Of a stretch of DNA of 291 bases, positions 1 to 291 are shown one piece after another. The notes below the pieces were generated by a model that searched no databases, was not told the origin of the DNA, and was given only the letters and a program-made list of their open reading frames with translations. The DNA is from Escherichia coli. Lineage in GTDB: Bacteria; Pseudomonadota; Gammaproteobacteria; Enterobacterales; Enterobacteriaceae. The stretch lies in assembly GCF_003334255.1 (NCBI RefSeq), contig NZ_QOWU01000272.1; one strand, given 5' to 3'. Every line of letters starts with the position of its first letter. The stretch's first letter is position 1. The position numbers and the translations under genes were made by a program.

Positions 1-1
1 G

Positions 2-193
2 TGCAGTGCCCTGGGAGTGGATGTCGGGTGCCATGCCACGCTGGTGCATTTTCCGGCCTGGCCGGCGGTGTGGCTGGCGCGTAATGATGACACCGGCTTT
101 CAGCAAGTGCTGGAACGTGCTGACTATCTGGCGAAGGAGCATACCAAAGCTCACTGCACCGGTGAGCGCAATTTTGGCTGTAGCCGGAGTTGA
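2..193 (+). CDS. 3' end of a protein-coding gene (63 C-terminal codons plus TGA stop); 5' part lies upstream of the window; product not identified
   Basis: Frame +2 is open from the window edge to TGA at 191-193. Translation: CSALGVDVGCHATLVHFPAWPAVWLARNDDTGFQQVLERADYLAKEHTKAHCTGERNFGCSRS*. Codon usage is typical of enterobacterial genes: all 5 Leu codons are CTG, both Pro are CCG, 3 of 4 Arg are CGT/CGC, and about 40 of 63 codons end in G or C. Amino-acid composition is unremarkable, unlike the overlapping frame +3. No start codon or RBS can be assessed because the 5' end is outside the window. Confidence 0.6.
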   Translation, partial: CSALGVDVGCHATLVHFPAWPAVWLARNDDTGFQQVLERADYLAKEHTKAHCTGERNFGCSRS

Positions 194-200
194 GCACGAC

Positions 201-210
201 TGGCGCGCCA
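201..210. repeat. Perfect 10-bp palindrome TGGCGCGCCA (contains GGCGCGCC) 8 bp downstream of the stop codon
   Basis: Read directly: positions 201-210 are identical to their own reverse complement. Biological role unknown. Confidence 0.5.
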
Positions 211-291
211 ATATCCGGCAAACCAAAAGTATGGGTTGTTGTCTGGCGGCAACGATGTATCCACTCGCCCACTGACTGTTTTTTACGTCAG

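Follow-up and report, generated by a model that had tools for sequence, protein, structure and literature searches.

Rho silences foreign DNA and terminates transcription on untranslated C-rich RNA, and operon leaders in genomic islands that come under Rho polarity are the closest described counterparts of the locus reported here. Shared with such leaders are genes on one strand, a long untranslated gap between them, no intrinsic terminator and a downstream tract in which C exceeds G. Unlike a passive Rho polarity site, the spacer at this locus is far more conserved than its flanking genes, a property that such a site does not require. A second point of comparison lies in the origins served by HUH Rep proteins. 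The geminivirus, circovirus and nanovirus origins, targets of the Reps of CRESS-DNA viruses, carry hairpin-loop nonanucleotides that end in TTAC, and the cleavage site of IS608 is TTAC. Here too an HUH-fold gene stands next to a hairpin whose loop, TGTTTTTTAC, ends in TTAC, but the stem is not conserved as DNA and the motif also occurs away from genes of this family.

The window that we analysed is a stretch of 291 bases from Escherichia coli; many complete E. coli genomes match it at 100% identity, and some form of it is present in ~3,550 of 5,426 genomes. Its setting is a CP4-44-like E. coli island with a CbtA/YeeU toxin–antitoxin pair, an antirestriction gene, Ag43, a YeeP-like GTPase, an AlpA-like regulator and hha. 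Copies of the island region number up to six per genome (median, two), and the spacer that begins in the window is found in ~70% of complete E. coli genomes, often more than once. As the reference locus we use that of E. coli ATCC 11775 (L001), in which window position 1 is L001 6001.

The window opens inside a gene of the YagK/YfjJ family (hereafter Gp2). Many E. coli genomes carry annotated genes that match positions 1–193 at 100% identity, and the TGA taken by the preliminary description as the end of a gene closes a real, annotated one. The downstream neighbour, which lay outside that description, proved to be a pair of overlapping zinc-ribbon genes (Zn1 and Zn2; Pfam domains DUF7828 and Zn_ribbon_11) on the same strand, the first of them 259 nt from the Gp2 stop. 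PADLOC and NCBIfam returned zero matches for the three neighbouring proteins. E. coli-type Gp2 sequence of 94–96% identity also turned up in contigs labelled Paenibacillus tengchongensis (683 bp, coverage 0.59) and in a Collinsella metagenome-assembled genome (L028, L073), probably through contamination or mis-binning. Features of the window and the spacer are collected in Table 1.

Table 1. Positions, in window numbering, of features in and around the window, forms of the spacer among copies of the island, and nucleotide diversity in eight copies picked for overall divergence from the window (L001, L008–L010 and L014–L017)
Feature	Position	Strand	Nucleotide diversity	Remarks
3' end of the 189-aa YagK/YfjJ ("inovirus Gp2 family") gene	1–193	+	0.1175	Coding part of the window; last 64 codons, including TGA 191–193
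Codons Y168-L-A-K171	125–136	+		Candidate catalytic tyrosine motif (YxxK) of an HUH-type nuclease
Inverted repeat GCTCAC/GTGAGC in the coding region	149–167			Terminator-like on the minus strand; weaker signal, with tail ATTTTGGC, on the plus strand
First 98 nt of the 259-nt unannotated spacer between the Gp2-family gene and the zinc-ribbon pair	194–291	+		Without intrinsic terminator
Flank segment	215–291		0.0065
RNA-only hairpin GUUGUUGUC-UGGC-GGCAACGAU	234–255	+		Three G-U pairs; in the predicted fold
Perfect 7-bp inverted repeat CACTGAC/GTCAGTG	270–276/287–293			Loop TGTTTTTTAC contains the T-run; the end of the window cuts the 3' arm
TTTTTTACG box, 'D' copy	279–287	+		Contains the T-run; one of four clustered island copies
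Whole spacer	194–452		0.018
Intergenic region upstream of the Gp2 gene			0.115
Gp2 coding sequence			0.083
Zn1 (first zinc-ribbon gene)			0.073
Zn2 (second zinc-ribbon gene)			0.177
Spacer class: full 259-nt form
Spacer class: similar only from one point onward	from 215			L011; no Gp2 gene upstream
Spacer class: similar only from one point onward	from 253 or 272			L002, L003, L013; different Gp2 paralogue upstream
Spacer class: interrupted by IS100				L005
Spacer class: short 165-nt form	similarity ends at 195			L004

The preliminary description had reported a flank without a canonical intrinsic terminator, and this was upheld. No stem-loop followed by a T-run was found on the plus strand of 194–291 by a consensus scan, by the same scan over locus positions 5400–7400 or by an energy-based scan. 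The energy-based scan was written for this analysis; because it recovered clear terminators in every positive control, namely K-12 yfjJ and all eight orthologous loci, the negative result in L001 is not a failure of the method. Folding with RNAfold gave −25.4 kcal/mol for 194–291, equivalent to shuffled sequences (z = −0.06; minus strand, z = 0.01). The whole spacer likewise folds no better as RNA than its shuffles (z = −0.37), which counts against a leader function. There is no GC-rich stem-loop right before a U-tract in the flank: the best hairpin ending 0–3 nt before T279 is irregular, at −5.7 kcal/mol (median for random positions, −2.5). Nor does a U-rich tract lie directly 3' of a stem, as the T6 sits in the loop of the 270–293 hairpin. 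That hairpin is itself no terminator, because the sequence after its stem, TTCCATTG (four T in eight), is not a U-tract.

Other parts of the preliminary description needed adjustment. The run at 279–284 is indeed the only one of five or more T in the flank, and the statement that the sequence before it has no complementary partner upstream is literally true; it misleads, however, since CACTGAC at 270–276 pairs with GTCAGTG at 287–293, on the other side of the run. The coding part has the reported GC content (60.1%, given as about 60%), but that of the flank is 53.1% rather than about 52%, and over these 98 bases the drop is not significant (Fisher p = 0.26). Because the GC content of the whole spacer (54.1%) matches that of the downstream genes (53.3%), there is no real compositional break. 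The proposal of a terminator beyond the window finds no support at this locus, as the remaining 161 nt to the next start codon hold no hairpin with a U-tract in either the consensus or the energy scan. A missing terminator between same-strand genes is commonplace; for a gene with a same-strand neighbour downstream it is not unusual, and the finding as originally written is ordinary and matters little.

Two terminator-like structures deserve mention. The repeat at 149–167 is a chance resemblance, its 5' arm being lost in L008, L009 and L017, in which columns 150–157 vary. In the short spacer variant (L004 2424–2500) and in L073, a hairpin TCAGTGTG...CACACTGA of −11 to −14 kcal/mol is followed by TTTTCCC and is a candidate terminator; the region of the L004 hairpin is detectably homologous to window 267–345 (3 of 1,000 shuffles scored as high). 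These two loci break any rule that no terminator occurs whenever Zn1 directly follows. Termination after the Gp2 gene is therefore not universally absent, a further point against the leader interpretation.

The spacer is much better conserved than the genes around it (Table 1), which argues that some function is maintained, whether as a leader, a regulatory site or a DNA site. Within the flank, positions 194–214 are variable between copies. For 215–452 the JC distance is 0.010 across the eight divergent copies, against a mean dS of 0.20 for Gp2 and 0.175 for Zn1, so that this segment appears to diverge ~20-fold less than the synonymous sites of both flanking genes, a figure carried by the only four lineages in which both genes have diverged (L008, L009, L010 and L017). 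At the population level, best-hit identity is at least 99% in 63% of records for the spacer, 69% for Zn1 and 24% for Gp2; only the Gp2 gene is thus clearly more variable, and the similarity of the spacer to Zn1 counts against a leader role. Because the lineages are few, the island is multi-copy and recombining, and spacer and Zn1 are alike in identity, gene conversion is a possible cause of the conservation beside purifying selection.

Variants with another Gp2 gene or none upstream keep the spacer from 215, 253 or 272 onward, and the spacer therefore travels with the downstream operon. In loci with a 199-aa Gp2 paralogue, the spacer holds a relic of an L001-type gene (L002 2330–2530, L003 2302–2515, L005 304–510 and L013 1880–2015). 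The relic, which is joined to the T6ACG box, consists of the 5' UTR (90–95% identical), the ATG and ~80 nt of frame-shifted 5' coding sequence (tblastn E = 0.04–0.05 in L002 and L003). These loci look like the outcome of a deletion through CGCC..CTGAC microhomology in an L001-like ancestor with tandem Gp2 genes. Such a deletion explains the resemblance of window 253–278 to the Gp2 5' coding region better than the idea that 253–278 is itself a relic of that region, which we dropped as the L001 spacer has no protein-level match.

The T-run belongs to a short box, TTTTTTACG, that recurs in the island: four copies lie within 4.1 kb of the 12.3-kb locus and five within 49 kb, where 0.33 would be expected. 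Three of the four precede an annotated gene in the same orientation (the alpA-like gene, Gp2 and Zn1); the fourth falls in 1.1 kb without annotation, where a 47-aa ORF is all that follows it. No wider homology is shared among the four contexts, between which local alignments recover only a 9–11-mer, and the box is absent from the short variant L004.

Scanning one genome per species yielded 58 loci with Gp2-family genes. The closest orthologues, 60–69% identical, come from Hafnia, Rosenbergiella, Tenebrionibacter, Siccibacter, Tatumella, Superficieibacter, an Enterobacteriaceae metagenome-assembled genome and a Klebsiella IncHI1B plasmid, in the gene order Gp2, alpA, small ORF, leader, Zn1, Zn2. 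A T6-7AC tract stands ~54 nt before the Gp2 start codon in these loci and again, in direct orientation, 46–54 nt after the stop. In 8 of 8 of them, with alpA the next gene, a hairpin of −7.4 to −17.7 kcal/mol ends 0–3 nt before the downstream tract, which is a canonical terminator arrangement; no such hairpin precedes the upstream tract. The window has the same T6-7AC shortly after the stop codon. However, the orthologous tracts follow a GC-rich hairpin, whereas that of the window follows only the irregular one and lies inside a loop. Beyond the box, no homology links the E. coli flank to the orthologous terminators.

At the other end of the spacer, the last ~90 nt, directly before the zinc-ribbon start codon, are conserved in at least seven genera. 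We observed that L001 6364–6455 (window-equivalent 364–455) is 85–95% identical in at least seven genera and in IncHI1B plasmids (nhmmer E = 1e-23). This segment is predicted to be closed by a helix, CCGCCA/UGGCGG, in which the changes are one-sided (G-U), with no compensatory pairs. The segment also contains GGGACG, the hexamer of the Pseudomonas aeruginosa AlpA binding element (PMC9371919); for a 6-mer, coincidence may well explain the match.

Between alpA and Zn1 the other genera carry an unannotated, conserved ORF of 44 aa (MEKRRRTQP..W.CPRCRRQYCGARPCPVCFR...AQP) with two CxxC pairs (L012 2316–2450, L021 2483, L023 2469, L024 2480, L026 1180 and L027 2485). It occurs in five other genera and a Klebsiella plasmid and is missing from the E. 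coli island. An alignment with MAFFT hinted that 215–365 might be a decayed copy of this zinc-ribbon ORF or of alpA, but nothing beyond the ~90-nt leader was detected with tblastn or an nhmmer profile.

Smaller elements of the spacer were also examined. Folding of the 270–293 hairpin gives z = −2.2 as DNA and z = −1.65 as RNA. With G-U allowed, 97.6% of cells are paired in an alignment of six distinct E. coli variants, a proportion that is not significant against a shuffle control. Neither this hairpin nor the Zn1 leader shows covariation, and no double compensatory change was seen in either, which again counts against a leader. Within the 234–255 hairpin, TGTTGTCTGGCGGC (237–250) is repeated at 13 of 14 positions as TGTCGTCTGGCGGC at 425–438 (L001 6425–6438), immediately before the Zn1 ribosome-binding site; a repeat as good arose in 1 of 300 shuffles, and nhmmer picked up the same repeat. 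The only Rfam 15 match, to SNORD39 in the coding sequence (E = 5.9), is a chance one, and L001 5200–7400 gave nothing at E ≤ 1. Two plus-strand spacer ORFs of 38 and 44 aa are not treated as coding, because the differences in them between the L001 and L003 variants are all non-synonymous. Overall, we found no structural or coding signal in 194–291.

The product of the upstream gene bears on how the spacer is to be read. It matches Pfam PF11726 (YagK_YfjJ_C; E = 4.8e-48) and, weakly, REP_ORF2-G2P, and it has the fold of Rep nucleases. Among 46 Enterobacterales homologues, H94-Y-H96 of the HxH motif, encoded upstream of the window, is nearly invariant, as is Y168 of the YxxK motif, in which K171 is invariant. 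By fold and by these motifs the product is a predicted Rep-like HUH nuclease, with putative nicking activity; a literature search on YfjJ and YagK returned nothing functional. The last 12 codons (window 158–193, motif GERNFGCSR) are also conserved family-wide. The codons that flank the YLAK motif (window 73–157) form the most variable patch of the gene among E. coli copies (pairwise identity 70–86%), and such a patch between strongly conserved segments suggests fine-scale mosaicism or diversifying change.

We noted further structures around the 5' end of this gene. A hairpin in the Gp2 leader (L001 5586–5623; equivalents in L021–L027 and L012) overlaps the GGAG ribosome-binding site with its 3' arm. 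Its stem differs between E. coli (TCCGTATG/CATACGGA) and the other genera (CCGGT..GGTTAT/ATAACC..ACCGG), and the loop TATGAAC is kept. The alpA leader has a comparable long-range pairing onto its own ribosome-binding site (CCTCTGAGG...CCTCAGAGG). A 289-aa ORF on the minus strand (L001 5618–6487) is antisense to the gene, in register with its codons, and spans all of the spacer. The frame stays free of stops in this copy alone, where the gene by chance uses no TTA, CTA or TCA codons; elsewhere one or two stops interrupt it, and the ORF is spurious, an accident of codon usage.

From the gene order, the missing terminator, the strong conservation and the recurrence of the box, we propose, with roughly even confidence, that 194–291 may be the upstream third of a conserved, terminator-less intercistronic region that acts as a read-through leader for the zinc-ribbon genes and is possibly attenuated by Rho. 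RNA polymerase leaving the Rep-like gene would run on into 259 nt of untranslated spacer, Gp2, Zn1 and Zn2 would form one transcription unit, and the spacer would serve the two zinc-ribbon genes as a leader or regulatory region. The T-run would then be not the tail of a terminator but part of the TTTTTTACG box found before neighbouring island genes, held here in a hairpin loop. Co-transcription with a downstream gene, one of the options raised in the preliminary description, seems to fit this anatomy of same-strand genes 259 nt apart, a conserved spacer and no promoter that we could find. A scan for −35/−10 consensus pairs with 16–18-nt spacing found no sigma-70-like promoter in the window and none in L001 5400–7400, where 1.2 would be expected, and manual attempts to build a sigma-70 promoter on the box gave spacings of 11–15 nt or poor hexamers.

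Rho termination, also raised in the preliminary description, would be compatible with the locus. Just past the window, at window-equivalent 300–410, is a C-rich, G-poor tract; its C/G ratio reaches 3.2 at L001 6328 (window-equivalent 328–405), which places it among the highest 0.4% when the 12-kb locus is read in 78-nt windows. An untranslated stretch of ~80 nt with the composition of a rut site is thus present beyond the window, and inside 194–291 the ratio is only 0.9–1.6. On this compositional basis, and outside the window, Rho-dependent attenuation is plausible: Rho loading on the naked C-rich RNA could reduce the output of the distal genes.

The same tract is open to a different reading, the main rival, which we regard as unlikely but worth serious consideration: two transcription units, with Rho ending the Gp2 transcript in the C-rich spacer and the zinc-ribbon operon transcribed from a separate promoter, dependent on an activator, that lies on or close to the TTTTTTACG box. 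The Gp2 3' end may then be trimmed back to the 270–293 hairpin. The C-over-G tract within 259 nt of untranslated RNA suits this reading, as does the placement of three of the four boxes ahead of the alpA-like gene, Gp2 and Zn1. Upstream of Gp2, the sequence conserved across genera starts a few bases at most from the box and reaches the start codon, and L002, L003 and L013 keep everything from the box onward. However, no −35/−10 pair passes the consensus scan, the D copy has no 'TA' ahead of its T-run as other copies do, and the fourth box has only the 47-aa ORF downstream; the rut-like tract is outside the window, and composition by itself is a weak guide to Rho. If instead the T-run were a leftover U-tract from an ancestral terminator whose hairpin was lost together with the alpA module, conservation could reflect recent gene conversion among copies. 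The hairpin with T6-7AC after the gene in every one of the eight orthologous loci points that way, as do the visibly mosaic island (breakpoints at 195, 215, 253 and 272), its copy number (median two and up to six per genome) and the absence of signals in 194–291. We nevertheless consider such a neutral relic distinctly improbable: only the box itself connects the E. coli flank to the orthologous terminators, and conversion confined to the spacer would be needed independently in at least four lineages. The relic is weakened in particular because the neighbouring intergenic region, at a diversity of 0.115, is far more diverse than the spacer.

A last alternative turns on the nuclease. The loop-exposed TTTTTTAC box could be a DNA target, nick-site-like or origin-like, of the HUH protein encoded next to it, so that the TTTTTTAC(G) boxes beside YagK/YfjJ-family genes would be cognate single-strand nick sites. 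The fold and the conserved HxH and YxxK motifs of the product speak for this, as do the directly oriented T6-7AC boxes on either side of the orthologous genes, each with a hairpin beside it. The 'AC' is conserved although a terminator tail does not need it, and in L001 the box is presented in a loop. We still judge the idea a long shot. Boxes A and B in E. coli have no adjacent Gp2 gene, L004-type loci are entirely without a box, and YfjJ-type relatives lack the upstream one. The stem shows no covariation, and in L002 and L003 it is an imperfect DNA stem, maintained solely by G-T pairs. There is also no cassette boundary at the downstream box, because conservation continues past it into alpA.

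With the read-through leader as the preferred interpretation, only two features seem worth following: how strongly the spacer is conserved, and the recurrence of the T6ACG box beside an HUH-fold gene. What is new is that the YagK/YfjJ family gains support, from fold and motifs, as an HUH nuclease with a short motif recurring beside its gene, and this combination makes a concrete and cheap biochemical hypothesis. If the nick-site interpretation were true, the apparently missing terminator here and the terminator in other genera would both be DNA sites, resembling an origin or a transfer site, that belong to an island module widespread in enterobacteria.
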